This document shows positions 7,223 to 29,248 of a stretch of DNA of 64,000 nucleotides, in pieces. The stretch is taken from contig DVNX01000113.1 in the NCBI GenBank assembly GCA_018714045.1, forward strand, positions 11,016 through 75,015, read 5' to 3'. Each line of letters starts with the position of its first letter. Positions within the stretch are counted from its first letter, which is position 1. Both the position numbers and the translations under genes were made by a program. The notes below the pieces were generated by a model. It saw only the letters and a program-made list of their open reading frames with translations. It was not told where the DNA came from and ran no database searches. The stretch is from Candidatus Ornithoclostridium faecavium. Its GTDB lineage: Bacteria; Bacillota; Clostridia; Christensenellales; UBA3700.

Positions 7223-9316
7223 TTATCTGACGCCGAACAGCAATTCGCCGTAAGTGGGGATCGGCCAGTATTCCGCAGCCGTCTTGGTTTCCGCTTCGTC
7301 CACGACCGCTCTCAGAGCGCTCATCTTGGGAAGGATCCCGTCTCTTATATAATCCGCTTCTGATATTATATCACAAAAATCCTTTACGTGAACGACGGCT
7401 TCTTTCAATTCGCTTGCCAAAGCCTGTCCTCTTTCCGTCAGTGACGACAAATTTTTTACCAGCCCGTGTTCGTAATCGCAACTTATATCCGGCATGAAAT
7501 TTTTCTTTGAAATTGCCGTTTCGCAAATTTTCGAAACGTATTTTTCGACCGCGGGAATGAGCTGCTTTTCAGCCATATCGACCATCGTCTCAGCCTCTAT
7601 AAGCACAGCCTTGCAGTAGTTGTCCAGCATTATATCGCACCTGGACTTAAGCTCCGTCTCGCTGTAAACGCCCTGCGAGGTCAGCATATCGACGTTCTTT
7701 TTGTCGAGGAGGTGCGGCATGCAGTCGGGAGTCGTGCGGTAGTTGGAAAGACCTCTCCTTTCCGCTTCTTTTATCCACGCTTCGTCATAACCGTTGCCGT
7801 TGAATACGATGCGCTTGTGGTCTTTTATCGTCTTCTTTATCATAAGGTGCAGAGCCGTGTTGAAATCCTCTACCCCTTCCAGTCTGTCGGCGTACTGTTT
7901 GAGTGATTCCGCGACAGCCGCGTTCAGCATTATGTTGGCGCACGCTATGCTGTTGGACGAGCCGAGCATTCTGAATTCGAACTTGTTGCCCGTAAAAGCG
8001 AAAGGAGACGTCCTGTTTCTGTCCGTCGTGTCCTTCTGAAAAAGAGGAAGCACGTCTACGCCCAGCTTGAGCTGAGTTTTCTTTTTCCCGCTGTACGGCT
8101 TATCGTTTTCGATAGCTTCGAGAACGGCGGTAAGTTCGTCGCCTAAGAATACCGAAAGTACCGCGGGCGGAGCTTCGTTCGCGCCCAGTCTGTGGTCGTT
8201 ACCCGCAGTAGCGACCGCGATCCTCAGAAGATCCTGATAATCGTCCACCGCCTTAAGCACCGCGCACAGAAATAACAGAAACTGCGCGTTTTCGTGCGGC
8301 GTTTCGCCGGGAGTGAGCAGGTTTACGCCCTTGTCCGTCGCCATAGACCAGTTGTTATGCTTGCCGCTTCCGTTTACGCCCGCGAACGGCTTTTCGTGAA
8401 GAAGGCATACGAGACCGTGACGGGAAGCGACCTTCTGCATTATCTCCATCGTCAGCTGGTTGTGGTCGGTAGCGATGTTGGTCGTGCTGTATATAGGCGC
8501 GAGTTCGTGCTGAGCGGGAGCGACTTCGTTGTGTTCGGTTTTAGCGAGCACGCCCAGTTTCCAAAGCTCCTCGTTGAGATCTGCCATATACTCTTCCACT
8601 CTGGGCTTGATGACCCCGAAATAGTGGTCGTCGAGTTCCTGACCCTTGGGAGCTTTAGCGCCGAAAAGAGTGCGACCCGTATAAATGAGGTCTTTTCTCT
8701 TATCGTACATTTCTTTGTCTATAAGAAAGTATTCCTGTTCGGGTCCCACAGAGGTACGCACGCATTTGACGTTCGTGTTGCCGAAAAGCTTAAGAATTCT
8801 CATCGCCTGTCTGTTCAGCGCTTCCATCGAACGCAGAAGCGGAGTCTTTTTATCCAGCGCTTCGCCGCCGTACGAACAGAACGCGGTCGGGATGCAAAGG
8901 GTCTTTCCCTTGATGAACGCGTAGGAGGTCGGATCCCACGCGGTATATCCTCTCGCCTCGAAAGTCGCTCTCAGTCCTCCCGACGGGAAGCTGGAAGCGT
9001 CGGGCTCACCTTTTATCAGTTCTTTTCCCGAAAACTCCATTATCACTCTGCCGTCGGGTGCGGGAGTAATGAAGCTGTCATGCTTTTCAGCCGTGATACC
9101 GGTAAGAGGCTGGAACCAGTGCGTGTAGTGCGTCGCGCCGTGAGCTACCGCCCAGTCCTTCATGGCATTCGCGACCGCGTTGGCTACCGAGATGTCGAGT
9201 TGCGACCCTCTGTCGATAGTTCTTTTCAGAGACCTGTACACGTCCGCAGACAACGTTGCTCTCATCACCCTGTCGTCAAAGACCATGCTGCCGAAATAAT
9301 CCGATACCGTTTGCAT
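7223..9316 (-). CDS. glnN: glutamine synthetase, type III
   Basis: About 697 aa from [15 protein letters not shown]..., with the length and N-terminus typical of GSIII. GGAG SD precedes the ATG at 9316. The 22 extra codons of the track ORF are a translation of the leader terminator. Confidence 0.9.
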
Positions 9317-9338
9317 AATTTTATTCTCCTTTTTCAAT

Positions 9339-9387
9339 AAAAAAGGGCAACGGCGCCTATGCTTTTTCAACATAGACGCCATTGCCC
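9339..9387 (-). terminator. intrinsic terminator in the glnN leader (attenuator)
   Basis: Minus strand reads GGGCAATGGCGTCTATG-ttgaaaaag-CATAGGCGCCGTTGCCC followed by TTTTTT. It lies between the promoter and the glnN SD. Confidence 0.75.
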
Positions 9388-9405
9388 GTTTGATTTATGT
9401 TTCGG

Positions 9406-9434
9406 ATTATACACAACGAAAAAACGTTTGTCAA
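9406..9434 (-). promoter_or_regulatory. sigma-A type promoter of the glnN operon
   Basis: Minus strand has TTGACA (9434..9429), a 17-nt spacer, then TATAAT (9411..9406). Confidence 0.7.
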
Positions 9435-9501
9435 CGGATTTTTGCAAAATTTTCTGAGAAATTTTTTATTGCCTTTTCTCGGATTTTTTGCGTTTTTTGA
9501 G

Positions 9502-9531
9502 TTGACGGACGCGATTTCATAATGCTATAAT
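9502..9531 (+). promoter_or_regulatory. sigma-A type promoter of the split-gltS/glnA/ANTAR operon
   Basis: TTGACG (9502..9507), an 18-nt spacer, then TATAAT (9526..9531). Confidence 0.65.
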
Positions 9532-9546
9532 CTGTCAAACGGGCAA

Positions 9547-9597
9547 AGGCGTTCGTTTTTGAGGATAACTGTCCTCGAAAACGAGCGCCTTTTTTTG
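9547..9597 (+). terminator. intrinsic terminator in the glt-operon leader (attenuator)
   Basis: An approximately 22-bp stem (AGGCGTTCGTTTTTGAGGA / TCCTCGAAAACGAGCGCCT) with a 6-nt loop and a T7 run. It lies 125 nt upstream of the first ORF. Confidence 0.75.
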
Positions 9598-9721
9598 CGT
9601 TGTGTCCGATGTGACGATGAGCATTAGTCGCTATCGCGTAATGACGCTTGTTGCATAAAGCTAAATTAATTAATCGATACCACTTATCCGTGCTATACGG
9701 ACAAGAAAGAGAGGTTTTTAT

Positions 9722-10816
9722 ATGTTATTGAAAGAAGGTCAGGTAAGGATCCCGTCGGGTTGCGCGGTATCTGCGGTGATTTCCCGAAAAGGCGAACTTA
9801 TGAGCGGCGAAAAAATAGTCGCCAGCATGGTGCCTATGCACGAGCGGTCGAACGGGCTGGGAGGCGGCTTCGCAGGTTACGGCATATATCCCGATATGGC
9901 TGAGTTTTACGCCTTTCATATGTTCTTCGAAAACAGAGAATGTCAGAAAGAATGCGAAGCGTATTTAAAAGAAGGCTTCGAAATAGTAAAAGCAGAACCT
10001 GTTCCCGTCCGCAAGATACCCGCGATAACGGACGAACCTGTCATTTTCAGATATTTCCTCTCCCCTCTGCGTTCCCGCATATCCGACGCGCAGGTGGACG
10101 AACGCGAATTCGTAGCACGCGCGACTATCCATATCAACGTATGCATAGACGGCGCTTACGTTGTATCGGGCGGCAAGAATATGGGCGTGTTCAAGGCTGT
10201 CGGCTTTCCGGAGGACGTAGGCGAATTCTACCGTCTGGACGAATACTCCGCATACTGCTGGACGGCGCACGGAAGATATCCGACCAACACCCCGGGCTGG
10301 TGGGGCGGCGCGCACCCGTTCGGACTTCTCGACTACACAGTCGTCCACAACGGCGAAATATCCTCTTACGACGCCAACCGCAGATATATAGAAGGTTACG
10401 GCTATAAATGCACTCTGCAGACGGATACAGAGGTGTTCACTTATATCGCCGATTACCTTATCAGAAAAAAAGGACTGACCCCCGAAGAAACGGCAAGCGT
10501 TATCGCCGCGCCCTTCTGGTCGACGATCGAAAACAAACCTCCCGAGGAACGGAAAAAGCTGACCTACCTCAGAAACGTATTTTCGGGACTTCTGGTCACG
10601 GGACCTTTTTCGATAATCCTCGGCTTTACAGGCGGGCTCATGGCTCTCAACGACAGACTTAAGCTCCGCTCCATGGTCGTCGCGGAAAAGGACGACAAAG
10701 TTTTCATCTCAAGCGAAGAAGCGGCTATCCGCGTTATGGAACCCGACGCGATAAACGTCCGTGCGCCCGAAGGCGGCGAACCCGTAGTAATAAGAGTTGA
10801 GGAGGGCGCATACTGA
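9722..10816 (+). CDS. glutamate synthase-type class II (Ntn) glutamine amidotransferase domain protein
   Basis: 364 aa. Candidate nucleophile Cys in IPSGCAVSAV. Resembles the GltB N-terminal domain and is the first of three domain-sized ORFs. Confidence 0.75.
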   Translation: MLLKEGQVRIPSGCAVSAVISRKGELMSGEKIVASMVPMHERSNGLGGGFAGYGIYPDMAEFYAFHMFFENRECQKECEAYLKEGFEIVKAEPVPVRKIPAITDEPVIFRYFLSPLRSRISDAQVDEREFVARATIHINVCIDGAYVVSGGKNMGVFKAVGFPEDVGEFYRLDEYSAYCWTAHGRYPTNTPGWWGGAHPFGLLDYTVVHNGEISSYDANRRYIEGYGYKCTLQTDTEVFTYIADYLIRKKGLTPEETASVIAAPFWSTIENKPPEERKKLTYLRNVFSGLLVTGPFSIILGFTGGLMALNDRLKLRSMVVAEKDDKVFISSEEAAIRVMEPDAINVRAPEGGEPVVIRVEEGAY

Positions 10817-13099: not shown

Positions 13100-14311
13100 A
13101 TGAAATATACGTCAAGCGAAGTTCTTCAATACGTCAGAGAGGAAGACGTAAAGTTCATACGTCTCGCATTCACGGACGTCTTTGGCAATCAGAAAAACAT
13201 ATCGGTAATGCCGTCCGAACTCGAACGCGCGTTTAAGTTCGGCATAGCGATAGACGCTTCCGCGATCGCAGGCTTCGGCGACGTCGCGCACAGCGATCTT
13301 TTTCTGCACCCCGACCCGTCCACTCTTACCGTGCTTCCGTGGAGACCCGAACACGGCAAAGTCGTCAGAATGTTCTGCTCCGTGCTCTGCCCCGACGGCT
13401 CGCCTTTCGTAGCAGATACGCGCGGGATACTGATAAAGGCTGTCGAAACGGCTAAGCAAAAGGGCTACTCTTTCAACTTCGGCACCGAAATGGAATTTTA
13501 TCTGTTCAGGCAGGACGAACACGGCTACCCGACGAAGATACCATACGACAGCGCGGGATATATGGACGTCGCGCCTCTCGACAGAGGCGAAAACGTCAGA
13601 AGAGAAATATGCCTCACCTTAGAGCAGATGGGCATTATGCCGGAAGGCTCCCACCACGAGGAAGGTCCCGGGCAGAACGAAATAGATTTCCGCTACTCCG
13701 ACGCGCTGACCGCCGCAGACAATGCCGTGACTTTCCGCTCCGTAGTTCAGACGATAGCGGCGAGAAACGGACTTTACGCCGATTTTTCGGCTAAACCTCT
13801 TGCGGATGCACCCGGAAACGGTCTGCATATCAACGTATCCGTAGACGGCGGAAGACACGAAGAGACGATACCTTTCGTCATCGCAGGACTTCTGGACAAG
13901 ATACGCGATATCACCGTATTTCTGAACCCGACCGAAAGCTCTTACACACGCCTCGGCAACAACAAAGCGCCGCGCTATATCTCATGGTCGGGCGAAAACC
14001 GCTCTCAGCTGATAAGGATACCCGCCGCGGTCGGAGAATACAGACGCGCAGAACTGCGCTCCCCCGACTCTCAGGCAAACCCGTATCTCGCGTTCGCGCT
14101 CATGATATACGCGGGGCTTTACGGCATAGAAAACAAACTGCCGCTCCCTGAGCCCGCGGACGTAAATCTGTACACCGCAGACAAAAAGACTCTTTCGAAA
14201 TTCAAAACGCTTCCCGCCGATCTTGCAGAAGCCGTATTGGCGGCAACGACGAGCGGGTTCGTAGCAGACAGCCTTCCCGAAGAAGTTATCGCGGCATATT
14301 GCAAAGGCTAA
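13100..14311 (+). CDS. glnA: glutamine synthetase family protein (short type I-like)
   Basis: 403 aa with GS motifs FGTEMEFYLF, SHHEEGPGQNEIDF, NGLHINVS, SSYTRL and SWSGENRS. Confidence 0.8.
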   Translation: MKYTSSEVLQYVREEDVKFIRLAFTDVFGNQKNISVMPSELERAFKFGIAIDASAIAGFGDVAHSDLFLHPDPSTLTVLPWRPEHGKVVRMFCSVLCPDGSPFVADTRGILIKAVETAKQKGYSFNFGTEMEFYLFRQDEHGYPTKIPYDSAGYMDVAPLDRGENVRREICLTLEQMGIMPEGSHHEEGPGQNEIDFRYSDALTAADNAVTFRSVVQTIAARNGLYADFSAKPLADAPGNGLHINVSVDGGRHEETIPFVIAGLLDKIRDITVFLNPTESSYTRLGNNKAPRYISWSGENRSQLIRIPAAVGEYRRAELRSPDSQANPYLAFALMIYAGLYGIENKLPLPEPADVNLYTADKKTLSKFKTLPADLAEAVLAATTSGFVADSLPEEVIAAYCKG

Positions 14312-14344
14312 CCAACCAACTTACGGCAAAAGTCGGAGGAAACA

Positions 14345-14929
14345 ATGGACTTTAAGGAACGTGTTTACAGCGTGCTTACCGTGTCTGACGGAGAGAAGTT
14401 TTCCGCTTCTCTGTCTCCTTTGCTCCCCGAAAGAACGTTCTCGCCCGTTGTCCGCGTTCCCGACGTCGCGACAGCAAAGCGCGCTATGCTGGAAAGAGAA
14501 TACGACATAGTGCTGATAAACGGCACCCGCGCCGACGACCGCGCCGCGAAACTGGCGATAGACGTATGCTCCGACAAAAGCTCGGTCGCCCTTCTTTTCG
14601 TAAAACGTGAATTATATGCGGAAATATTCGCTAAGGTATCCGACTTCGGCGTACTTACCGTTCCCCTTCCGTCGTCGCCCCAGATGGTAGTCCAGGCTCT
14701 GGACTGGGCGCGCGCTACGAGAGAACGCATGAGGCGCTACGAAAGATCCGCCCAGACCGTCGAACAGAAAATGGAAGAGATACGTGCCGTAAACCGCGCG
14801 AAATGGCTTCTTATCGACGTACTTAAAATGACTGAAGCGGATGCGCACAGATACATTGAAAAACAGGCGATGGACAGATGCGTTTCAAAACTCGAAGTCG
14901 CAAAAGGCATCATAAATACGTATAAGTGA
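14345..14929 (+). CDS. ANTAR-domain RNA-binding regulator with a receiver-like N-terminal domain
   Basis: C-terminus EIRAVNRAKWLLIDVLKMTEADAHRYIEKQAMDRCVSKLEVAKGII is an ANTAR signature. The N-terminal half is receiver-like but degenerate. Confidence 0.8.
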   Translation: MDFKERVYSVLTVSDGEKFSASLSPLLPERTFSPVVRVPDVATAKRAMLEREYDIVLINGTRADDRAAKLAIDVCSDKSSVALLFVKRELYAEIFAKVSDFGVLTVPLPSSPQMVVQALDWARATRERMRRYERSAQTVEQKMEEIRAVNRAKWLLIDVLKMTEADAHRYIEKQAMDRCVSKLEVAKGIINTYK

Positions 14930-14946
14930 CATCAGATAAAAATCCC

Positions 14947-15016
14947 GCGCCGTTGATGTGCACCCCAAAAGTTAGACACTTTTGGAGGTGCACATCACGT
15001 AAAAGGCGCTTTTTTT
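14947..15016 (+). terminator. intrinsic terminator after the ANTAR gene
   Basis: Long nested hairpin GCGCC..GATGTGCACC..CCAAAAGT/ACTTTTGG..GGTGCACATC..GGCGC followed by T7. Confidence 0.7.
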
Positions 15017-15226
15017 ATTTCCCTTATTAAATGCCATGTTCTCACGTCGTCAGACATCGACCGTATCCGGCAGAGAGCAGCTTATCCTGCGCGCAATTTC
15101 GTTAATTGTTCAGTCGGTCGGTCGATATGCCGCGCGATAATTTATATGCAGCCGTGTTTTTCTCATTCAAAACACTTTCTGTCAATATCCCGTTTTTAAG
15201 TATTTGAACAATATCCCGACTTTCGT

Positions 15227-15255
15227 TTGCGTAGCGGCGCGCGTAGTGATATCAT
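15227..15255 (+). promoter_or_regulatory. candidate promoter of azlCD
   Basis: TTGCGT, a 17-nt spacer, then TATCAT. It lies 34 nt upstream of the azlC ATG. Confidence 0.4.
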
Positions 15256-15288
15256 ATTGTTTGCCGCAAACAGCGGATAAGAGGTAGT

Positions 15289-16113
15289 ATGCGTTTTAAA
15301 TACGGATGCCGCGACGGCGTACCTATAATGCTGGGATATCTGACCGTTTCTTTCACCTTCGGCGTAAGCTGCGTTGCTAAAGGCTTCGCCTGGTGGATGC
15401 CCCTTTTATGTTCTTTTACCAATTTCACGGGTACGGGACAATTTGCGGGAATGGATCTGATAGCGGCAGGCGGCAGCGTGGTCGAACTCATCGCCACGAT
15501 GCTGGTCATAAACGCGCGTTACTCGCTGATGGGAATATCTCTTTCACAGAAACTGGAAGGTAAGACGACTCTGTTGCAAAGACTTGTCATCGCCTTCGGT
15601 CTTACGGACGAAAACTATGCGGTCGCGATAAGACAGCCGCGCGACGTCTCTTTCGAATACTTTCTGGGCGTATCTCTGACTTCTTTTTCGGGTTGGGTCG
15701 CGGGCACTCTTCTGGGGACGCTCGCGGGAAACGTACTTCCCGAAAGTCTGCTCAGCGCTTTCGGCATAGCGCTGTACGCAATGTTCATCGCGATAGTCGT
15801 CCCACCGTGCCGCACCTCGAAGGCGATTTTCACGGTAGTCCTCACCGCGATAGCGATGAGCTGCCTTTTCTATTACGTTCCCGTACTTAACGGTCTTTCG
15901 TCGGGCTGGTCGATAATAATATGCGGAATAGTCTCTGCTCTTATCGGAGCGATATTCTTTCCGATAAAACAGGACGGCGACAGCGAAAACAAACCAAAAG
16001 ACGGAGTGATATTCGGCGGTAAAAAAAGCAACGAATACCCCGAAGAAACGTATACTGGTCGCGAAAATGTCGCGGGCGACGCAAATAACGACGCCAAAGG
16101 AGGCGCGCTGTGA
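15289..16113 (+). CDS. azlC: AzlC family branched-chain amino acid permease component
   Basis: 274 aa and polytopic, with N-terminus GVPIMLGYLTVSFTFGV typical of AzlC. Overlaps azlD by 4 nt. Confidence 0.8.
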   Translation: MRFKYGCRDGVPIMLGYLTVSFTFGVSCVAKGFAWWMPLLCSFTNFTGTGQFAGMDLIAAGGSVVELIATMLVINARYSLMGISLSQKLEGKTTLLQRLVIAFGLTDENYAVAIRQPRDVSFEYFLGVSLTSFSGWVAGTLLGTLAGNVLPESLLSAFGIALYAMFIAIVVPPCRTSKAIFTVVLTAIAMSCLFYYVPVLNGLSSGWSIIICGIVSALIGAIFFPIKQDGDSENKPKDGVIFGGKKSNEYPEETYTGRENVAGDANNDAKGGAL

Positions 16114-19646: not shown

Positions 19647-21068
19647 TCAATCTCCGAATTTGCCGAAAAACTTCGCCGCGACCTCTTTGCCTCCCGTTTC
19701 CGTTATCCTGCCGCCGCTTACGACTGCCGCCCTGTCGCAAAGCGCGTCTGCGCACCTTACGTCGTGAGTCACGGTTATGACCGTGTTGCCCGTTTCTTCG
19801 TGGATCTTATTTACGAGTTCGGTAAGCCTTTTAAGATTTTCGTAATCCTGTCCTACCGTAGGCTCGTCGAGAATAAGCACGTCGGGAGCCGAAGCGCATA
19901 CCGCCGCTACCGTCACCAGTCTTTTCTGACCCTCGGACAGCGATTGCGGGTGCCTTTTAAGCAGTTTTTCCAATCCGAACAGTTTCGCAGTCTTTGCCGC
20001 GAGATCCTTATTCTTCGCGCCGAAAGCTATCTCCTTCTCCACGGTCGGCATAAACAGCTGATAGTTGGGGTTCTGATAAACGACGCCTACGCGTTTAAAC
20101 CATTTTCTGTTTCCTCTTTTTCTGTCGAATTTCGGATCGAGGAATTGCCTGATCTCGCCCTGAGAAGGTCTGCTCAGCCCTGCGATAAGCCTCGTTAAAG
20201 TCGTCTTGCCGCTTCCGTTTTCACCCAGGATCAACAGCCTTTCGCCCTTATAAACTTCAAGGTCAACGCCCGTAAGTATTTCCCTGCCGCCCGCCGAAAA
20301 TCCGACCTTTTCAATGCTGAAAAGTTTTTCCGCAGTCGGTTTCGACTTGCAGCTGTCCTCTATCCTTTCGGCACGCTCACGCATATAAGCGGCTTTGTCG
20401 TCTGTTTTTGAGAGCCTGCCGTTTTCCATATGCCATATCGTGTCTGCATACGGCGCGACTTTATCGACGCGGTGTTCGGTGATAAGCACGGCGTATCCCG
20501 CAGCCGCCAGTCTTTTCAGCGCGCCCAGAAGCAGTTCCGTCCCCTCGCCGTCAAGGTTCGCGAGAGGTTCGTCCAGCACAATTATCTTCTGATCGGTCGC
20601 GAGCGTGCAGGCGGTCATAAGTCTTTGCTTCTGCCCTCCTGAAAGAGTGCGCGTATCCCACGACGGAGACAGGCTCATCATTCCGCACGCCCTCGCAATG
20701 TTTTCAGCGATCTTTTCGCGAGGCATACCGAAGTTTTCGCAACCGAAAGCTATTTCGTCTTCTACCGTATTCTGAATTATCTGCGCGTCCGCGTTCTGCA
20801 ATACAACGCCTACCTTGCGGCATATTTCAGCCATCGTCATACCGCCGATATCTTCGCCCGAAACGTACGCTTTCCCTGAGATATCGCCTGAAACGACGTG
20901 CGGGATTATACCGCAGATCACAGATAAAAGCGTACTTTTACCGCTGCCCGAACAGCCTGAAAGCAAAGCGACCTCGCCGTAATCGAGCTTAAAATCCACT
21001 CTGTCGAGAGCGCGTTCAGCCTGACCATCGTAACGGAAACTCAGTTTTTTTGTCATCACCGCGTTCAT
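19647..21068 (-). CDS. ECF-transporter ATPase, fused duplicated EcfA-EcfA'
   Basis: 473 aa with two Walker A sites (GCSGSGKST, GENGSGKTT), two LSGGQ-like signatures (LSGGQKQR, LSEGQKRL) and two Walker B sites. Confidence 0.85.
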   Translation of the reverse strand: MNAVMTKKLSFRYDGQAERALDRVDFKLDYGEVALLSGCSGSGKSTLLSVICGIIPHVVSGDISGKAYVSGEDIGGMTMAEICRKVGVVLQNADAQIIQNTVEDEIAFGCENFGMPREKIAENIARACGMMSLSPSWDTRTLSGGQKQRLMTACTLATDQKIIVLDEPLANLDGEGTELLLGALKRLAAAGYAVLITEHRVDKVAPYADTIWHMENGRLSKTDDKAAYMRERAERIEDSCKSKPTAEKLFSIEKVGFSAGGREILTGVDLEVYKGERLLILGENGSGKTTLTRLIAGLSRPSQGEIRQFLDPKFDRKRGNRKWFKRVGVVYQNPNYQLFMPTVEKEIAFGAKNKDLAAKTAKLFGLEKLLKRHPQSLSEGQKRLVTVAAVCASAPDVLILDEPTVGQDYENLKRLTELVNKIHEETGNTVITVTHDVRCADALCDRAAVVSGGRITETGGKEVAAKFFGKFGD

Positions 21069-21739
21069 AATACCACCGCCAATACCGATCCCGCAACGAG
21101 GATAACGGCAAACGCCGCGTCCTTGACAGCGAATTTCACGTCGCGGTACACGGTATAATTTTTGTCATCGGCACTGAAGCCGCGCGTTTCTACGCTCAGA
21201 GCGAGAGTGTCCGAAATGTTTACCAGTCTTACCACGAGCGGCACCAAAAACGCCCTGTGAAATATCTTAGGGTTTAAAGCATTGCCGGCGCCGCGCGTTT
21301 TCATCGCTTCCCTTATCCTCTGAGTCTCCTTTCTCAAAAGCGGAAAAAAGCCGAGAGCTATCATCATTCCCAGCGTCAACATTCTGGGCGCGCGTAACCC
21401 CGACAGATTTCTGACAAGAAGCATAGGTTCGAGCGCCAGTCCGGGGATCAGCGCGACGGATACCGCGAGTATCCTGTTCGCCGCCGCAAAAGTCGAAACC
21501 GCGTCTTTTGAAAGCGCGTAGGTGATCCCGCAGAATATGGCGCTCATGATAAGCGCGATCGGCAGCACGGCAAGACAACTTTTCCAGTATCCGAACGCAA
21601 GGAAAAGCAGCCACACGCCCGCCGCAAAGAAAGTCGAAGCCGCTGTCTTAGCCGTTACCAGCCCGACCACGAGTATCACGACGGCGGAAATCACGCTTAA
21701 GACAGGATATACGGGATTTTTGACTTTGAGCGTTCCCAT
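21065..21739 (-). CDS. ECF transporter transmembrane (T) component, EcfT/CbiQ family
   Basis: Starts MGTLKVKNPVYPVLSV...; polytopic, with an ...AMKTRG... motif. The ATG at 21739 overlaps the upstream stop by 1 nt. The longer track start is rejected. Confidence 0.75.
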   Translation of the reverse strand: MGTLKVKNPVYPVLSVISAVVILVVGLVTAKTAASTFFAAGVWLLFLAFGYWKSCLAVLPIALIMSAIFCGITYALSKDAVSTFAAANRILAVSVALIPGLALEPMLLVRNLSGLRAPRMLTLGMMIALGFFPLLRKETQRIREAMKTRGAGNALNPKIFHRAFLVPLVVRLVNISDTLALSVETRGFSADDKNYTVYRDVKFAVKDAAFAVILVAGSVLAVVL

Positions 21740-22485
21740 TACTTTTTCAATACCCCCGCTTTCTTTAATTCTTTCGATATCTTGAGACCGACAAGAGTAC
21801 CGACGACAGCAACGGCGCATACCGCGACCGCCATACCGACAGCCGACCACGGCGCGTTTTCGGCTACCGCCGTCATACCGACGTCGTTTATTATCTTGTT
21901 GTAAACGTAGTTGAAAGGAAGAGAGAGCGGATTGTACAGCGCGACAGCGAAAAATACCGCTTTATCCGACTTGTAACCCTTGAATATAAGGACAACGAGG
22001 ATCTCGAGTATAAGCCCGACTATAACGTTGTTTATAAACATTGCGGGAGACATGAACAGCTGTATCACTCCCGTGAACACTGCGATAAGGAACATACTTC
22101 CCACCTTTCTCACCTTTGAAAGCGCTATAGCGGGGAATACCGCAAGCTGAAGCCCCGTTACAAGCTGAGCTATGCCGAACACCGTCGTAAGAAGAGGTAC
22201 GACCAGCATCATGACCGAACATGTAAGAAGAGTTATCGCCGACATTACCGCGAGAAAGACTATATCCTTTATCCTGAATCTTTGGAATATCTTGGCTTCG
22301 TCGTCGGTTTCCTCTTTGCCGTGCTTATCGACGAAAAAGCTCTCTTCTGCTTCTTCGCAGAACGCGTCGTCGTCCTTTATCCCGACAGCTTCTTTTTCGG
22401 TATTTTTACCGCATTTTTTCGTATCCGTGTCAGTAATACCGATATTTTCATCCGACTTTACGTTGTTTTCTTTAACTTCTTTCAC
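21739..22485 (-). CDS. putative ECF transporter S component (MptD-like) with an acidic N-terminal extension
   Basis: 248 aa. The C-terminal ~175 aa form a multi-helix membrane core directly upstream of EcfT and EcfAA'. GTG start with AAGGAGGAG SD. Confidence 0.6.
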   Translation of the reverse strand: MKEVKENNVKSDENIGITDTDTKKCGKNTEKEAVGIKDDDAFCEEAEESFFVDKHGKEETDDEAKIFQRFRIKDIVFLAVMSAITLLTCSVMMLVVPLLTTVFGIAQLVTGLQLAVFPAIALSKVRKVGSMFLIAVFTGVIQLFMSPAMFINNVIVGLILEILVVLIFKGYKSDKAVFFAVALYNPLSLPFNYVYNKIINDVGMTAVAENAPWSAVGMAVAVCAVAVVGTLVGLKISKELKKAGVLKK

Positions 22486-24171
22486 TTATTTCTCCTCCTT
22501 TATCCTTCCGTTTTCTATCCTGTAAACTCTGTCAGCTATTGCCATCGTAGACTCTCTGTGAGAGACCAGGATTATCGCCTTGTCCTTTTTCTGCTCCGCA
22601 AGCGATCTTAAGATCATTCCTTCGTTGATACTGTCCACGTTGCTTGTAGGCTCGTCGAGAAGTATAAGTCCGCTTCCGCGCAGAAAAGCCCTCGCGAGTC
22701 CTATTCTCTGCTTTTCGCCCGCGCTCAGATTGTCGCCCAGCGCTCCCGCGCGGGTCTCATACCCTTCAGGAAGAGAGACAATAAAGTCGTGTACAGATGC
22801 CCGTCTGCACGCCCTTTCGAGTTCTTCTTCAGTTGCGTCCTCTTTCGCGATCCTCAGATTTTCCTCGATAGTATCGTCGAAAAGATAGGTGGACTGACTA
22901 ACCATCGTAACGTTATCGGTAAGGCTGCTTGAGTTTATCTCTTCGATATCCTTTCCGCAATACGATATACTGCCGCCGTCTTTGCTCCAGAAGCGAAGCA
23001 GCAATTTGAGAAGAGTGGATTTCCCGCAACCGCTTTTGCCTACGATGCCGACTATCTCGCCGCGCTTTGCGTTAAGACAGATGTCTTTCAGCACTTCTTT
23101 ATCCTTTTCGTAAGAAAAGCAGAGATCTTTAACTTCGAGATCTTCGAACAAGAAATCTTCGCCGTTTTCTATGTTTTCGACGACGGGCTTTTCGTTCAGC
23201 AGTTTTAAGACCCTGTCTCCGCTCGCGAAAGTCTGCGTAAGGTTCCCGGGAAGCGCGGATATCGCGATGACGGGTCCGAAGCTTCCGAATATCGCGACTA
23301 CGCCTATGATCGCCTTACCTATCGATATTTCTCCCGCGGCAACCAAAGCGACCGCCGCGCCAGCCGCGATGAGAGTCATAAACGATACGGTAAATTCCGT
23401 CGCCGCCGTAGCGTTTGCTATCTTGTATTTAAGTTCGCGGGTATATCCCGAAAGAGTGTCCGATCTTTCCGAAACGCCGCGCTTTCTCGTCTCTCCCGCG
23501 TTGTTGAGCACTATATCCTTTATGCCCTTTATGCTGTCGAGAAAATAGGCGTTGAACGCTGAAAAGCACGCGCGGTATTTTACGCCCGCCTCTTTCATCG
23601 CAGAAGAGGATATCAGCGGCGCGACTATTCCGACCGCTATATACCCGATAGCCGCTACGAGAGCCAGCCACCAGCTCGATACGAGACCCACGAAAATCAT
23701 CACCGCCGCAGATACGGTCAGCGCGATGCATATCGGCGATACCGTATGCGCGTAAAACACTTCGAGCGTCTCTATGTCAGAAGTCAGCATCGCTATGATG
23801 CTTCCCTTCTGCTTGCTTTCGAGTTTAGCGGGGCAAAGCCTTCTGAGCGCGGAAAAGATCTTGTCTCTTAGCACCGCGAGAAGCTTGAACGCGATATAGT
23901 GGTTGCAATACTGTTCGACAAATCTGAGTCCGCCTCTGAGCACGCCCAGTCCTACCGCCATGCCGATTATTACCCCGTACGACAAAGCTATCTGTTCGCC
24001 TAAAGCCTTGGCGACGCCGACAGCGCCGAAAACAGTAACGCCCATAGAGCATACAAATCCCAGACTTCCGTTTATCACCGCGAATACCATTACGTACGCG
24101 AGAGAGCCTAAAAGCACGATCAGACTCGCCATTATCCTGCCGCCGCTCATTCTGCCGCCTTGCTTTTTCAT
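22486..24171 (-). CDS. ABC transporter permease/ATPase fusion (exporter-type, CydC-like)
   Basis: 561 aa: N-terminal 6-TM domain and C-terminal NBD (GKSGCGKST, LSAGEKQR, LLDEPTS). Confidence 0.8.
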   Translation of the reverse strand: MKKQGGRMSGGRIMASLIVLLGSLAYVMVFAVINGSLGFVCSMGVTVFGAVGVAKALGEQIALSYGVIIGMAVGLGVLRGGLRFVEQYCNHYIAFKLLAVLRDKIFSALRRLCPAKLESKQKGSIIAMLTSDIETLEVFYAHTVSPICIALTVSAAVMIFVGLVSSWWLALVAAIGYIAVGIVAPLISSSAMKEAGVKYRACFSAFNAYFLDSIKGIKDIVLNNAGETRKRGVSERSDTLSGYTRELKYKIANATAATEFTVSFMTLIAAGAAVALVAAGEISIGKAIIGVVAIFGSFGPVIAISALPGNLTQTFASGDRVLKLLNEKPVVENIENGEDFLFEDLEVKDLCFSYEKDKEVLKDICLNAKRGEIVGIVGKSGCGKSTLLKLLLRFWSKDGGSISYCGKDIEEINSSSLTDNVTMVSQSTYLFDDTIEENLRIAKEDATEEELERACRRASVHDFIVSLPEGYETRAGALGDNLSAGEKQRIGLARAFLRGSGLILLDEPTSNVDSINEGMILRSLAEQKKDKAIILVSHRESTMAIADRVYRIENGRIKEEK

Positions 24172-25931
24172 AACGCCGCACCTCCTTTTGCGTACAAGAG
24201 ATAACCCTGTTCGAGCTCTTTCTGCGTATTATAAAGCGCCGCATACTCTCCGCCCTTCGCGCATAGCTCTGAGTGCGTTCCGCTTTCCTCGACCGCGCCG
24301 TCGTTGAGAAAATATATTTTGTCAGCCTTAACGACGTTTTCCAATCTGTGGGATATGACTACCACCGCCGCTTTTTTTGACAGCGCGTCGATATTTTCCA
24401 TTATCACGGCTTCGCTTTCTACGTCGATATTAGAAGTCGCCTCGTCAAAAACATATATATCCTTATCTGCAACCAGATTGACAGCGAGCGCGAGCCTCTG
24501 CTTCTGCCCGCCCGAAATATTGCCCGCGTCTTCCGTTATCACCTTGTCGGGTCCGCCGTTTTCTCTGACGAAATCGGCGAGATCTACCTTTTTGAGCGCG
24601 GAGTATATCTCGTCGTCGCTTACGTCGTTTTTCGCCATGCGGAAATTGTCTCTTACGCTTTCGTTGAATATGTAAGTATTGTAACTTACCACCGCTAAGC
24701 GCGAATAATAACTCTCTCTGGAAAATTCGTCGAAAGTCTTTCCTCCTACGAGGACCTGTCCGTCAGAAGGCCTCAGCGCCCCCGTTATAAGACCTACCGC
24801 AGTCGATTTACCGCTGCCGCTCTTTCCTACTATCGCGGTTATCCCCTTGCTGAAAGTCATGTTTACGTTTTTGAGCACGTCGCGACTGCCGTCGTAAGAA
24901 AAGGTCACGTTTCTGAGTTCCACGTCTCCGTCTCCGACCTCGCCCTTTCCCCAGACGGGCTGTTTTGCGTCAAGAAGAGCCTTTATCTTTTTACCTGCGC
25001 TTGCACCGTTCATAGCTACGTGAAACGCGCTGCCGAGAGCTCTCAAAGGCAGGAAAAATTCTACCGCGACGAGAATGAGGAACAGCGCTTCGAAAGGCGT
25101 TAAGTACCCATTTACAGCCCCCGTCACCGCAAGCGCTATACCCGCGCCCGCTCCGCCGAACGCGACCAGATCCATGATAGTGGTGCTGGCGAGTTGCATG
25201 ACCAGCACTTTCATCGTGATCTTGCGGAATTCTTCAGCCTTTTCGTTCATCTTTTCGTGATAGCGAGCGTCCGCTTTATATATCTTGAGTTCTTTGAGCC
25301 CCTGCACGCCGTCCAGAAATCCGTCTCCCATCGCCGTATACTTTCCCCAGTATTTAGCGAATATCCTCTTTGCGTACTTGCTGACCGCGATTATAGAAAG
25401 CGGTATCAGCGGCACGCACGCGAGAAGTACGAGCGAGGTGCGCCAGTCTATGAACACGCATACCGAAAAAAGAACAAAAGGAGCTATCACCGAAAAGAAG
25501 AACTGCGGAAGGTAGTTGGAATAATAAAGGTCGAGTTGCTCTATGCCTTCCATGCTCACCTGCGTAAGACCCGCCATACTCATCTCTTCCGTCGTGCGCA
25601 CGCCGAGGGAGACTATCTTGTCGTAAGTCTTTGTCCTGAGCTCCTTTCTGACTTTCGCGCCGAGGCTTGCTTTTATCCTGTTCACGGCTATCCCGGTCGG
25701 GATCCTCAGGATAACGCCTGCGAGCGCGAGCGCCGCGGGAATAACGTATCCTCCGGCCTCTGCACCTTCCGCCGCAAGAGCTATCATATTGCATATACAT
25801 GCCGTCACCGCCATGTTGAGCAGCATCGCGACGACGGACAAGACGACCGTCGCCGCAATATATCTGCCGCTTCCCTTTGCCAATAAAAACAGATCTTTAT
25901 CCAGCATATCTATTTCCTTCTTCCCCGTCAT
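24168..25931 (-). CDS. ABC transporter permease/ATPase fusion (exporter-type, CydD-like)
   Basis: 587 aa with a TMD and an NBD (GKSGSGKST, ISGGQKQR, VFDEATS). ATGA overlaps at both ends. Confidence 0.8.
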   Translation of the reverse strand: MTGKKEIDMLDKDLFLLAKGSGRYIAATVVLSVVAMLLNMAVTACICNMIALAAEGAEAGGYVIPAALALAGVILRIPTGIAVNRIKASLGAKVRKELRTKTYDKIVSLGVRTTEEMSMAGLTQVSMEGIEQLDLYYSNYLPQFFFSVIAPFVLFSVCVFIDWRTSLVLLACVPLIPLSIIAVSKYAKRIFAKYWGKYTAMGDGFLDGVQGLKELKIYKADARYHEKMNEKAEEFRKITMKVLVMQLASTTIMDLVAFGGAGAGIALAVTGAVNGYLTPFEALFLILVAVEFFLPLRALGSAFHVAMNGASAGKKIKALLDAKQPVWGKGEVGDGDVELRNVTFSYDGSRDVLKNVNMTFSKGITAIVGKSGSGKSTAVGLITGALRPSDGQVLVGGKTFDEFSRESYYSRLAVVSYNTYIFNESVRDNFRMAKNDVSDDEIYSALKKVDLADFVRENGGPDKVITEDAGNISGGQKQRLALAVNLVADKDIYVFDEATSNIDVESEAVIMENIDALSKKAAVVVISHRLENVVKADKIYFLNDGAVEESGTHSELCAKGGEYAALYNTQKELEQGYLLYAKGGAAL

Positions 25932-26434
25932 CCGACGAGCTTTGCTTTGCTAAGATCGCAGGTCACCGAAAACTCTACGACTTTGTTCATGATTTTCACT
26001 TCACATTCAAGCGATATCTCAGAGTCCAGCTCCTCGCGCGTCATTTCGAACGTAAAACTCTGATATCCGTCCGCTGCGCCCTGCTTTCCCTGGGTTTTAC
26101 CCGATTTTCTCACGACTTTGACGCTTCCCAGCATGCCGTCGTCGCAATAAAATGTCAAAGTATAGCCGCTTTGAGTCTTTTCGACCGTAACGTAATCGGC
26201 GCAATTTGCCGATATCATCGTCTTTCCGATAGCGGACGTGTCTCCTATTTCGTAAGGCACTCTGAACACCCCCGTATCTTCCGAATCGATATCGTAAATT
26301 TCTCCCAACGTTCTTCCGTATACGTCTGTCCCTTCGTAAACGACTTCTCCGTTGTTATCGTTACACGCGGTAAACGCAAAAATCGCGATCGCGATCGTAA
26401 GCGTCGCAATCATACACTTAACTATTCTCTTCAT
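25928..26434 (-). CDS. lipoprotein of unknown function
   Basis: 168 aa. Signal peptide with lipobox (IAIFAFTAC). No family recognised by eye. Confidence 0.65.
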   Translation of the reverse strand: MKRIVKCMIATLTIAIAIFAFTACNDNNGEVVYEGTDVYGRTLGEIYDIDSEDTGVFRVPYEIGDTSAIGKTMISANCADYVTVEKTQSGYTLTFYCDDGMLGSVKVVRKSGKTQGKQGAADGYQSFTFEMTREELDSEISLECEVKIMNKVVEFSVTCDLSKAKLVG

Positions 26435-26826
26435 TTAGCGTCCTCTCCTTTTTCAGTCTTTCCCGTCGCATTCGTCTTTCCCTTTGTTTCGTTTTTTCCA
26501 TTTGCCATCTTTTTCTCTCTGCTCTTGCGTTGCAAAGTCTCCCTTAAATGAGCAAACGCAACTAACGGATCGTAAAAGATCATTCTGGGTCCGCTATATC
26601 GCATGACTTCTTTTATCTTTTCTCTCATTTCAGGCTTGTAACAATGTATCCTGCAATTAGAGCAAAAGGGCTTGTCGTCTCCGAAAGGACATTTCGATCG
26701 CCTGAACTGTACGTACTCCCACAGCTCTTGGCAATCCTTGCAAAGCTTTCCCTTTTCAGTTTTGTGTCTGCCGCGACAATACAGCTCTATCATGAACCTG
26801 ACGGTGGCAAGATCGTCTTTACGCAT
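26431..26826 (-). CDS. YgbA-like Cys-rich protein (the family annotated as nitrous oxide-stimulated promoter protein)
   Basis: 131 aa with CRGRH..CKDC..CPFG..CSNCRIHCYKP, characteristic of YgbA-like proteins. AAGAGGAGG SD. Confidence 0.65.
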   Translation of the reverse strand: MRKDDLATVRFMIELYCRGRHKTEKGKLCKDCQELWEYVQFRRSKCPFGDDKPFCSNCRIHCYKPEMREKIKEVMRYSGPRMIFYDPLVAFAHLRETLQRKSREKKMANGKNETKGKTNATGKTEKGEDAK

Positions 26827-26841: not shown

Positions 26842-26857
26842 GTTAGCAATTGCTAAC
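26842..26857. promoter_or_regulatory. operator-like perfect 16-bp palindrome GTTAGCAATTGCTAAC (copy 1)
   Basis: Perfect dyad, 16 nt upstream of the ygbA-like ATG, just before its SD. Confidence 0.55.
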
Positions 26858-26959
26858 TTGCCTGGTTTGAATAACGGCGTTCAGAAGGCGTATCTTCGCC
26901 ATACCTTACGCCGCTCTTTGAAAAGACATCTCTTTCCTTTGCTCAATTATCATATCATA

Positions 26960-26988
26960 AGTATACTGCGCCGTATTTGTGTTAGCAA
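26960..26988 (-). promoter_or_regulatory. candidate promoter of the seven-gene operon
   Basis: Minus strand has TTGCTA (inside palindrome copy 2), a 17-nt spacer, then TATACT. Confidence 0.45.
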
Positions 26989-26996
26989 TAGCTAAC
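26981..26996. promoter_or_regulatory. operator-like palindrome GTTAGCAATAGCTAAC (copy 2)
   Basis: The 6-bp arms are perfect inverted repeats and only the central N4 differs from copy 1. Overlaps the candidate -35. Confidence 0.55.
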
Positions 26997-27101
26997 ATAT
27001 CGCTACTCTGTAAATTATATGATACGTTGCGACAAAATACCCGTATTTATCGCAAAATCCGTAATCCGATATCATTTGAATAAATGTTACCGCATTTTTA
27101 A

Positions 27102-27117
27102 GTTACCTATTGCTTAC
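27102..27117. promoter_or_regulatory. degenerate third copy GTTACCTATTGCTTAC
   Basis: One mismatch per half-site relative to GTTAGC/GCTAAC. It lies 22 nt upstream of the -35 of the plus-strand promoter. Confidence 0.35.
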
Positions 27118-27139: not shown

Positions 27140-27168
27140 TTGACCAAAGCGCGCCTTTATTTTATAAT
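27140..27168 (+). promoter_or_regulatory. sigma-A type promoter of the flavin oxidoreductase gene
   Basis: TTGACC, a 17-nt spacer, then TATAAT. AAGGAGG SD follows. Confidence 0.6.
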
Positions 27169-27196: not shown

Positions 27197-29248
27197 ATGC
27201 AGGACAAATTCAAACCGTTGTTCACGCCGTGGAAAATACGCGACGTTGAGATCAAGAACAGGATAGTCCTCTGTCCTATGGGCGGAACTTCCCTGTTCGG
27301 CTGGATGGAACCCAATCACTTCGACAAGGTCGCCGCAGATTTCTTTATGGAAAGAGCAAAACACGACGTCGGACTTATAATCCCCGGCATCGCTCCGCTC
27401 AGAGACACCATAGGCGGAAGATGGCTGTACAAAAACAAGAAGATGTTCGGTAAGCTCAAAGATTATATGGTCGAATTCCATAAGACCGGCGCTAAAATGT
27501 TCATTCAGCTTACCGCGGGTTTCGGCAGATCTTTCGCTGTCACAGACGCTCTGGTACCTATGCTGAAAAACAAAGCTCTCGGTCTGCTGGCAAAACCATT
27601 CGTGGACATACAGTATATCTGCGCTTCTCCCAGCGAGCTTCCTTCGCGTTGGGCTGAAGACGTTATGTGCCGCGCGCTGACCAAAAAGGAAATTCAGCAG
27701 ATGGTCTACGCTTTTGCCGAGACGGCGCGTCTGTGCAAAGAAGCGGGAGTCGACGGCGTTGAAGTCCACGCCGTTCACGAAGGATATCTTCTCGATCAGT
27801 TTACCCTTCCATATACCAATAAACGCACGGACGAATACGGCGGCAGCTTTGAAAACCGTTACCGCTTTGCCGTCGACGTCGTAAAGGCGATAAAGGCGGC
27901 TTGCGGAGAAAACTACCCCGTTTCCCTGCGCTATTCGGTACTCAGCAAGACTAAGGATTTCTGCGTGGGAGCTATGCCCGGCGAAGTCTACGACGAAATA
28001 GGCAGAGATATGGAAGAAAGCGAAAAAGCGGCTAAATATCTGCAGGACGCGGGTTACGATATGCTGAACGCGGACAACGGCACTTACGACGCGTGGTACT
28101 GGGCACACCCGCCCGCATATATGCCGAAGAACTGCAACCTCGACGACGTCGCGCATATCAGAAAATTCGTCGATATCCCCGTAGTATGCGCGGGAAGAAT
28201 GGAACCCGATACAGCCGCGCAGGCAATCAAAGACGGCAAGATCGACGCTATGGGCGTCGCGCGTCAATTCCTCGCGGACGGCGCGTGGGTCACAAAGCTC
28301 AAGGAAGACAAACTCGACGATATACGCCCGTGCATATGCTGTCACAACGCGTGTTTCGCGATGGCGCATTATAAAGGAGTCGCCAACGACGAAACTTTCG
28401 ACGACGCGTCCCACATGGCGCGGTGCGCGCTCAACCCGCAGACGATGCAGGGACATAAGTACGACATAATTCCTGCCAAAAAGCCGAAAACGGTCGCGGT
28501 CATCGGCGGCGGCATAGGCGGCATGGAGACCGCAAGGATAGCGACTCTCCGCGGACATAAAGTCACGATATACGAAAAGACGGATAAGCTGGGCGGCGTA
28601 TTCATTGCCGCGGCGGCGCCCGATTTCAAGGAAAAGGACAAAGACCTGATAAAGTGGTATATAAAGCAGATAAACGACCTTAATATACCCGTTAAATTCA
28701 ACTGCGAAATAAAGGATATTTCAAGTCTTAAAGAAGACGAGATAGTCGTCGCTACCGGCGCGGTCGCGCGGAAGATGAATATCAAAGGCATAGAACGCGC
28801 GAAAGAAGCGGTAGAATATCTTTCGGGAGCGCAGACAGGCGAAAACGTAGTCGTAATCGGCGGCGGTCTTACAGGCTGCGAAATAGCTTACGATCTCTTC
28901 CTGAAAGGAAAGAAACCCGTCATCGTTGAGATGAAAAACGACCTCATCGCGGTGCGCGGCGTATGCCTTGCCAACTCCTCTTATCTGAGAGATTTCTTCG
29001 CATATAACAAAGTGCCCGTCTATCTCGAAAGCAAAGTTTCCGAAATAGGAGAAAACAGCGTCACCGTAACCGATAAGAACGGCAAAAAGACGGTGCTCAA
29101 AGCGGACGACGTGATCGTTTCAGTCGGATACGCTCCCGCGCCGTTAGCCGCTAAAGACAAACGCGTTTCTCTGGTCGGCGACGCTAACGGAGTCGGCAAC
29201 CTGCGCACAGTGATATGGCGCGCGTGGGACGTGGCAAAGAAGATATGA
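27197..29248 (+). CDS. NADH:flavin oxidoreductase, 2-enoate reductase / 2,4-dienoyl-CoA reductase-like (OYE barrel plus Fe-S plus FAD/NAD domain)
   Basis: 683 aa: OYE-like N-terminus (NRIVLCPMG), Cys cluster RPCICCHNACF and a GGGIGGME dinucleotide fold. Confidence 0.8.
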   Translation: MQDKFKPLFTPWKIRDVEIKNRIVLCPMGGTSLFGWMEPNHFDKVAADFFMERAKHDVGLIIPGIAPLRDTIGGRWLYKNKKMFGKLKDYMVEFHKTGAKMFIQLTAGFGRSFAVTDALVPMLKNKALGLLAKPFVDIQYICASPSELPSRWAEDVMCRALTKKEIQQMVYAFAETARLCKEAGVDGVEVHAVHEGYLLDQFTLPYTNKRTDEYGGSFENRYRFAVDVVKAIKAACGENYPVSLRYSVLSKTKDFCVGAMPGEVYDEIGRDMEESEKAAKYLQDAGYDMLNADNGTYDAWYWAHPPAYMPKNCNLDDVAHIRKFVDIPVVCAGRMEPDTAAQAIKDGKIDAMGVARQFLADGAWVTKLKEDKLDDIRPCICCHNACFAMAHYKGVANDETFDDASHMARCALNPQTMQGHKYDIIPAKKPKTVAVIGGGIGGMETARIATLRGHKVTIYEKTDKLGGVFIAAAAPDFKEKDKDLIKWYIKQINDLNIPVKFNCEIKDISSLKEDEIVVATGAVARKMNIKGIERAKEAVEYLSGAQTGENVVVIGGGLTGCEIAYDLFLKGKKPVIVEMKNDLIAVRGVCLANSSYLRDFFAYNKVPVYLESKVSEIGENSVTVTDKNGKKTVLKADDVIVSVGYAPAPLAAKDKRVSLVGDANGVGNLRTVIWRAWDVAKKI

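Follow-up and report, generated by a model that had tools for sequence, protein, structure and literature searches.

The 64,000-nucleotide stretch of Candidatus Ornithoclostridium faecavium DNA analyzed here (contig DVNX01000113.1; hereafter, the window) carries a seven-gene transporter operon on the minus strand, headed by a ygbA-like gene and transcribed divergently from a flavoenzyme gene. Upstream of ygbA lie two perfect copies of the palindrome GTTAGC-N4-GCTAAC, which most probably serve as operators of a homodimeric, two-domain metalloregulator of the DtxR/IdeR/MntR family, encoded outside the window, whose metal-loaded form would repress the operon. The regulator is proposed to be a protein of ~120-125 amino acids (aa) without an SH3 domain. 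Observed in this analysis were the sequence features of the dyads, their conservation, their association with a regulator family and with metal genes, and a co-variation between protein residues and DNA bases. The two dyads, both read directly from the sequence and neither assigned to a strand, are as follows.

Positions 26842-26857: proximal dyad GTTAGCAATTGCTAAC, palindrome GTTAGC-N4-GCTAAC
Positions 26981-26996: distal dyad GTTAGCAATAGCTAAC, palindrome GTTAGC-N4-GCTAAC

Two occurrences of this palindrome in 64 kb compare with 0.00 expected from dinucleotide shuffles. Beyond these two, even the 10-base core TTAGC-N4-GCTAA was found nowhere in the window, extending the earlier observation that the 16-mer has no further copy there, and the variant GTTCGC-N4-GCGAAC was likewise not found in the 64 kb. 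The proximal copy is, as originally described, a perfect 16-bp dyad just upstream of the ribosome-binding site of the ygbA-like gene: 4-5 nt separate its end from the Shine-Dalgarno sequence, and the start codon is the ATG at 26826. Two promoter-like elements, both on the minus strand, were considered for the operon.

Positions 26949-26957, minus strand: extended -10 element TG-a-TATGAT, the likely operon promoter, conserved in the alignment, with a predicted transcription start near 26942
Positions 26960-26988, minus strand: promoter-like match TTGCTA-17-TATACT (9/12), specific to the window, with its -35 hexamer within the distal dyad

The second of these had been put forward as a promoter whose -35 hexamer, TTGCTA, is contained in the distal dyad; the match is present on the minus strand as described, but TTGCTA-17-TATACT is not conserved in orthologs. 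The columns T.TG.TA..AT of the extended -10, on the other hand, are invariant in an alignment of six orthologous regions. This element (TGnTAnnAT) starts 27 nt past the distal dyad, which is 11 nt further downstream than the window-specific match. Relative to its predicted start, the distal dyad occupies about -54 to -39 (centered at ~-46) and the proximal dyad about +86 to +101.

A scan for YgbA proteins, using one genome per species, yielded 25 loci (numbered with the prefix L), 7 of which are Christensenellaceae loci with the same operon. Conservation upstream of orthologous operons had been named as a check on the motif, and pairs of perfect GTTAGC-N4-GCTAAC dyads are indeed kept upstream of ygbA in L001-L006, with invariant arms and variable spacers, while L007 has two dyads of a GTTAGT variant and L009, a metagenome-assembled genome labeled 'Clostridium sp.', has one perfect and one degenerate dyad. 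In the alignment of six divergent intergenic regions, both dyads, the flavoenzyme promoter and the extended -10 are invariant. With arms kept constant and spacers that vary across orthologs, the dyads behave like operators, which supports the original proposal that they are sites of a dimeric regulator, predicted to act in trans on the seven-gene operon; the second half of that proposal, co-control of the flavoenzyme, is weak (see below). L002 and L007 keep the operon dyads although the flavoenzyme is not the neighboring gene there, and in L007, L009, L013, and L014 the sites overlap the -10 element or the transcription start. The two dyads are 137-182 bp apart, and in six of seven cases this spacing falls within 0-0.33 turn of an integer number of helical turns, a weak, post-hoc hint of looping.

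The regulator family was suggested by genes found beside the dyads in other loci. DtxR-family genes flank the homologous operon in L010 and L013, and in a Selenomonadaceae locus (L008) three dyads of the related form GTTCGC-N4-GCGAAC lie between two small genes, termed reg1 and reg2, that precede ygbA; both match iron-dependent repressor domains, although the matches of reg2 (MarR and Fe_dep_repress) are weak. Five operon-adjacent regulators were aligned and metagenome contigs scanned, giving 80 loci with short DtxR-like genes (562,020 bp in total). When all perfect 6-N4-6 palindromes in these loci were counted, GTTAGC ranked first, with 21 non-redundant copies in 10 loci, and GTTCGC second, with 12 copies in 5 loci; for each, ~0.03 copies were expected and the maximum in shuffled sequence was 1. 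Thirteen of the 21 GTTAGC copies are upstream of the regulator gene, and the genes adjoining dyads, as classified by Pfam, encode FeoA, FeoB, a DUF3793-flavodoxin, a ZIP transporter, a lone Trep_Strep S component, and YgbA with an ATP-binding cassette (ABC) transporter. In L100, ygbA-ABC1 comes after a DtxR-family gene, and four sites of the GTTAGC type, one of them perfect and the others with a single mismatch, are spread over the stretch that begins just upstream of this regulator gene and reaches the gap before ygbA. In L110-L113, a feoA-feoA-feoB cluster is divergent to the regulator gene, with three dyads in the common 295-bp region, and in L119-L121 a 16-kb 'metal island' containing a full operon homolog has nine GTTCGC dyads at four promoter regions. 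The regulator clade comprises at least 7,900 members, named only generically in the sources.

The type of dyad co-varies with the recognition helix of the neighboring regulator. Among regulators within 700 bp of GTTAGC sites, the helix starts with Ser-Lys-Pro-Ser in nine of 10 loci (~6 independent lineages), as it does in the L110 family beside such sites, while all regulators beside GTTCGC sites have Ala-Lys-Ser-Ser at this position. The correspondence has p ~0.005 by Fisher's test on non-redundant lineages, which may not be fully independent. The co-varying positions align to Ser37 and Pro39 of DtxR, and in IdeR the equivalent residues are in van der Waals contact with the thymine that is the third base of CCTAA (PMC8464063). 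The base contacted in IdeR is the one that differs between GCTAAC and GCGAAC. The combination of GTTAGC with Ser-x-Pro was seen in L045, L056, L060, L085, L094, L100, and L110, and that of GTTCGC with Ala-x-Ser in L008, L029, L031, L047, L051, L052, and L119-L121. A separate observation is that L047 has GTTAGC and GTTCGC sites in one locus, suggesting paralogous regulons without cross-talk.

The metal site and the geometry of the dyads are also those of this family. Cys102, Glu105, and His106 occur without exception in the 70 distinct regulators, 43 of which carry Met at position 10; the Met10/Cys102/Glu105/His106 arrangement is the DtxR primary site and differs from the Asp/Glu arrangement in MntR (PMC2628430). 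In IdeR, a single CCTAA is read by each monomer, and one dimer is bound to repeats 1 and 3 of the 19-bp sequence TTAGGTTAGGCTAACCTAA; these two repeats form TTAGG-N4-GCTAA, and a designed single-dimer site is bound with a dissociation constant of 78 nM (PMC8464063). In Bacillus subtilis MntR, the helix reads bp +/-4 to 7, and the T at -7, present in 19 of 20 half-sites, is contacted by a proline (PMC11882963). The window dyad, TTAGC-N4-GCTAA, has the spacing and register of the IdeR single-dimer and MntR sites. The pentamer geometry, the clustering at regulator genes, the placement at metal-gene promoters, and the correspondence between helix and base were all found as in operators of the DtxR/IdeR/MntR family.

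Several characterized systems resemble parts of this arrangement. The closest is the IdeR/DtxR iron box of Actinobacteria, TTAGGTTAGSCTAACCTAA, which shares the pentamer TTAGS/SCTAA and the 4-bp gap between the pentamers of one dimer, together with the Ser37-x-Pro39 pair, the Met10/Cys102/Glu105/His106 metal site, and repression (here presumed) of metal-uptake genes. It differs in that IdeR occupies two overlapping dimer sites within 19 bp, whereas the dyads described here are lone 16-bp single-dimer sites; in addition, the present regulators are short, have two domains, lack the SH3-like domain and carry Arg or Val in place of Gln43, and their hosts are Clostridia and Negativicutes. B. subtilis MntR is alike in its two domains, similar size, one dimer per inverted repeat, reading of bp +/-4 to 7, proline-thymine contact, and several sites usable cooperatively, but its metal site contains Asp8/Glu99 (Mn-selective) rather than Met/Cys, its half-site sequence is different, and it activates efflux genes as well. 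E. coli MntR uses ATAGC-N4-GCTAT. MtsR of Streptococcus pyogenes is a DtxR-family repressor that acts over an iron/heme acquisition operon, shr-shp-sia, but it is a three-domain protein and its operator is a 22-bp AT-rich pseudopalindrome. The shr-shp-sia operon has an exporter-type ABC pair (siaDE) and an energy-coupling factor (ECF) module (siaFGH), family assignments that are provisional.

The mptABC-mptDEF cluster of Mycobacterium avium subsp. paratuberculosis, which is induced by metal starvation, combines an IrtAB-like ABC transporter with an ECF module (PMC4298942), and its S component defines the MptD family matched by the S component in the window; it is controlled by zinc through Zur, a Fur-family protein, and has neither a DtxR-type operator nor ygbA. 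In Treponema pallidum, the short DtxR homolog TroR acts on a dyad-symmetric region at a metal-transporter promoter, with the ligands Asn10/Glu102 as a difference, and the tro operon includes a phosphoglycerate mutase gene, as found beside dyads in L045 and L046 (PMC2628430). In these two loci, a homolog of cofactor-dependent phosphoglycerate mutase and an enolase gene stand beside GTTAGC dyads (L045, 3549-4357 and 5089-6469; L046, 486-1889 and 3039-3785), which hints at a possible metal-sparing isoenzyme replacement. HcpR2, a CRP/FNR-type regulator, shares with the present system a palindrome with a 4-nt spacer and an occurrence in anaerobic Firmicutes (PMC1274295), but has a different half-site, regulator family and regulon (hcp, frdX).

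What follows on binding, metal, regulatory direction and transporter substrate is inferred. According to the proposed mechanism, the recognition helix of each monomer would read one TTAGC, the pentamers being 4 bp apart as for one dimer on the IdeR box. Under metal sufficiency, the metal-loaded dimer would occupy both sites and keep the operon off: the distal site either overlaps the -35 region of the operon promoter or immediately precedes it, and the proximal site, ~90 bp downstream and right before the ribosome-binding site, could act as a roadblock or through looping with the distal site. Upon metal starvation, the apo-regulator would leave the DNA and the operon, presumably a metal, heme, or metallophore acquisition system, would be expressed. 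The cognate metal is most likely Fe(II), with Mn or Zn possible; iron is favored because the regulators have a DtxR-type primary site and because the regulon includes feoAB and flavodoxin genes.

A number of observations weigh against this model or parts of it. The distal dyad does not sit squarely on the core promoter but upstream of the conserved -10 and the predicted -35, and the proximal dyad is far downstream of the promoter; repression is therefore proposed from the behavior of the family, and MntR and IdeR can also activate transcription. With respect to the metal, the mycobacterial mpt cluster of similar architecture is under zinc control through Zur (PMC4298942), Mn is the signal for TroR and MtsR, and the presence of a phosphoglycerate mutase homolog in the regulon (L045, L046) is a hint of Mn as well. 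No DtxR-like regulator was detected in any of the six frames of the 64-kb window (tblastn, and a 70-sequence profile with best E = 1.4), which agrees with the earlier statement that no regulator gene is nearby, and a Pfam scan of the flanking genes recognized no DNA-binding transcription factor, three open reading frames having no Pfam match. The nearest syntenic relatives (L028, L114-L117; 58-79% protein identity to window genes) have a DtxR-like gene of the Ala-x-Ser type, and no dyad is near it. In the abundant Ser-x-Pro family L106-L109, no dyads occur near the regulator gene or feoAB, and L036 is an exception to the co-variation of dyad and helix. Finally, the loci with GTTCGC-type dyads have the divergent winged-helix gene reg2 directly before ygbA, a possible binder at those sites.

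This last point leads to an unlikely, operon-specific alternative, in which the dyads are bound by another winged-helix protein, such as a homolog of the MarR/DtxR-like reg2. In L008 and L119-L121, the dyads are flanked by reg1 on one side and reg2-ygbA on the other, as is probably also the case, by likeness, in the L008-like loci L029, L031, and L047; the matches of reg2 itself are confined to the two weak ones given above. However, no reg2 homolog was found in the window or in the Christensenellaceae loci, dyads stand beside a classical DtxR-like gene without reg2 in L100, L010, L051, L052, and L110, and they are found ahead of feoAB and flavodoxin genes that have no reg2 anywhere near; moreover, the co-variation involves the helix of the reg1 type. 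The co-variation bears similarly on the highly improbable notion that the Cys-rich YgbA-like protein is itself an autoregulatory binder of the dyads, since the covarying base and residues map to the DtxR-like helix. YgbA is the product of the first operon gene and is small and basic, with seven cysteines, and in the genome-derived set the dyads are always in ygbA-bearing loci, yet the same dyads are found before feoAB, flavodoxin, ZIP, and DtxR-like genes in loci without ygbA, the gene is the last of its operon in L012-L014, and the protein has neither a known DNA-binding domain nor a solved relative.

An RNA-level role is also quite improbable: the proximal dyad could form, in addition to or instead of an operator, a 6-bp hairpin by the ribosome-binding site that modulates translation, stability, or a neighboring hairpin. 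A stem-loop is predicted for the proximal dyad in all seven leaders, with the Shine-Dalgarno sequence 4-5 nt away and a conserved hairpin and T-tract ~10 nt before it, but the dyad arms are invariant rather than co-varying, an identical dyad lies upstream of the promoter, many loci have the dyad in either orientation within divergent regions that are not transcribed, and no Rfam family was matched. Readout as DNA is favored because the arms are invariant and the distal copy is untranscribed. Least probable of all is that the dyads are CRP/FNR-type, HcpR-like sites answering to nitric oxide (NO) or nitrite, the link to nitrosative stress that the original prediction had drawn. The 5-N4-5 geometry is common to the dyads and FNR-type sites, the YgbA family is named after an NO-responsive promoter in E. 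coli, and HcpR2 sites with the consensus GTAACnnnnGTTAC are known in Clostridia (PMC1274295). The dyad half-site is nonetheless unlike the HcpR2 and FNR/CRP consensus sequences, and GTAACnnnnGTTAC is matched by neither dyad nor by the third, degenerate element described below; no CRP/FNR-family, hcp, or frdX gene is among the annotated neighbors of dyad-bearing loci, and the dyads are strongly associated with DtxR-family and metal-homeostasis genes; the link is not supported.

The evidence for control of the flavoenzyme is different from that for the operon. On this side of the intergenic region, the following features were considered.

Positions 27102-27117, no strand assigned: third element GTTACCTATTGCTTAC, atypical and lineage-specific, ~65 bp upstream of the flavoenzyme start
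Positions 27140-27168, plus strand: flavoenzyme promoter TTGACC-17-TATAAT, both hexamers invariant in orthologs
Positions 27197-29248, plus strand: divergent gene for an Old Yellow Enzyme-family Fe-S flavoenzyme of 683 aa, assigned by family matches

The third element was originally described as a degenerate copy of the dyad 22 nt upstream of the -35 of the flavoenzyme promoter. Its location holds, the promoter TTGACC-17-TATAAT agreeing with the consensus at 11 of 12 positions, but its status as a copy does not: it differs from GTTAGC-N4-GCTAAC at two positions and has a broken core. Sites with up to two mismatches are expected ~2.4 times per 64 kb (calculated as 631/4^12 per position), and an unrelated one is present at position 251 of the window. 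Within 200 bp of perfect dyads, 12 such secondary sites were observed against 0.26 expected; their outer positions vary (ATTAGC, GTTAGA, GTTAGT) and all 12 keep the TTAG core. One arm of the third element, GCTTAC, is tolerated and also present in L054 and L100, while the other, GTTACC, breaks the TTAG core and was seen in none of the 12. The element is kept in four to five of six orthologous regions with a sequence of its own, GTAAGCAnnAGGTAAC, and this form recurs solely in Christensenellaceae orthologs, centered ~65 bp upstream of the flavoenzyme start. In view of the core-breaking arm GTTACC and the recurrence in orthologs only, the third element was rejected as a true operator copy; it may be a weak, perhaps cooperative, site or the site of another factor. 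Co-control of the flavoenzyme is weak and unproven because only this atypical element is near its promoter; 144 bp separate the flavoenzyme -35 from the end of the nearest perfect dyad, upstream of it.

The flavoenzyme has a CxxCxxxC...C motif (C379, C382, C386, C410) and is 88-91% identical in L001 and L003-L006; its top NCBIfam matches, long-form bilirubin reductase and BaiCD, are both far under their curated cut-offs. On the operon side, the leader contains a further structure.

Positions 26873-26915, minus strand: GC-rich leader hairpin followed by GTTATTC, terminator- or attenuator-like (fold z = -3.1)

The leaders of L001-L006 have hairpins with different stem sequences, each before a conserved GTTATTTTAT and ~10 nt ahead of the proximal dyad. 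The hairpins in L004 (5900-5913) and L006 (5937-5953) are classed as terminator-like by the prediction tool, whereas that in the window, with the tract GTTATTC, is not. A search of the intergenic region and the orthologous leaders for known cis-regulatory RNAs gave no Rfam match.

The seven operon genes encode YgbA, a lipoprotein, an ABC pair, and the S, T and double-ATPase components of an ECF transporter.

Positions 26431-26826, minus strand: first operon gene, YgbA_NO-family Cys-rich protein of 131 aa (Pfam PF11756, E 2e-40; NCBIfam NF007714)
Positions 25928-26434, minus strand: predicted lipoprotein of 168 aa with signal peptide and Cys, no family match
Positions 22486-25931, minus strand: CydD/CydC-like heterodimeric ABC pair, each a fused permease and ATPase, 587 and 561 aa (NCBIfam)
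Positions 19647-22485, minus strand: ECF module with an MptD/Trep_Strep S component, a CbiQ-type T component and a fused double ATPase (family matches)

The top NCBIfam matches of the ABC pair are CydD and CydC, both under the curated cut-offs. For the 168-aa protein, no Pfam, NCBIfam or Protein Data Bank relative was found, and its gene is confined to the operon as found in Christensenellaceae, at 45-66% identity. The idea that it is a hidden regulator was rejected, since it is predicted to be a lipoprotein and matches no known family or structure; it could serve as an extracellular binding component peculiar to this lineage. Across Firmicutes, a YgbA_NO gene shares its operon with a CydDC-like ABC pair (L007-L010, L012-L014, L100, L119-L121), sometimes as the first and sometimes as the last gene, and an MptD-type ECF module is often present. 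This suggests that YgbA works with the CydDC-like transporter rather than in NO metabolism.

The genes flanking this region include GH77, hydrolase, DUF1508, AzlCD, ANTAR-protein, and GlnA genes. At 13100-14929 of the window, a glutamine synthetase gene precedes that of an ANTAR-domain protein, which probably acts as an RNA-binding antiterminator in nitrogen regulation and is unrelated to the dyads. In L028 (3180-3557) and L114 (41-424), the DtxR-like gene adjoins an ANTAR-glnA-glutamate synthase block, and the corresponding position in the window (14929-15289) leads on to azlC/azlD instead; the regulator gene has therefore been lost or moved in this lineage. In L117, the DtxR-like gene and an adjacent aldehyde dehydrogenase gene are present twice on a single contig, in inverted orientation (8001-9926 and 13145-15070), representing either an inverted duplication or an assembly artefact.

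Taken by itself, the system would be a metal-starvation switch of a familiar kind, whose operator and regulon were not described for these gut Clostridia in the literature found: a search for the 6-N4-6 operator returned only papers on the classical 19-bp DtxR box and no published description of the operator or regulon. It is possible, albeit doubtful, that the regulators constitute a very large, uncharacterised clade of two-domain DtxR-like proteins in gut Clostridia and Negativicutes, with a single-dimer 16-bp operator, two orthogonal codes (Ser-x-Pro with GTTAGC, Ala-x-Ser with GTTCGC), and a core target consisting of ygbA, a CydDC-like ABC transporter and an MptD-type ECF module. If so, the two codes would let paralogous metal sensors share one cell without cross-talk (both site types are present in L047), and the YgbA family, known for its 'NO-stimulated promoter', would be an accessory (Fe-S or Zn-ribbon) component of a starvation-induced metal, heme, or metallophore acquisition system.

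The operator model D-GTTAGC-N4-GCTAAC-H is usable for predicting iron-type regulons across thousands of Clostridia genomes, and the specificity rule of two residues and one base is open to swap mutagenesis. The YgbA-family gene would be relabeled as a member of a metal-starvation regulon instead of an HcpR/NO regulon. For the Christensenellaceae, gut bacteria that are of interest for health but whose handling of metals has scarcely been studied, the analysis supplies a testable regulator family and a testable signal, metal starvation, for a conserved seven-gene transporter operon.

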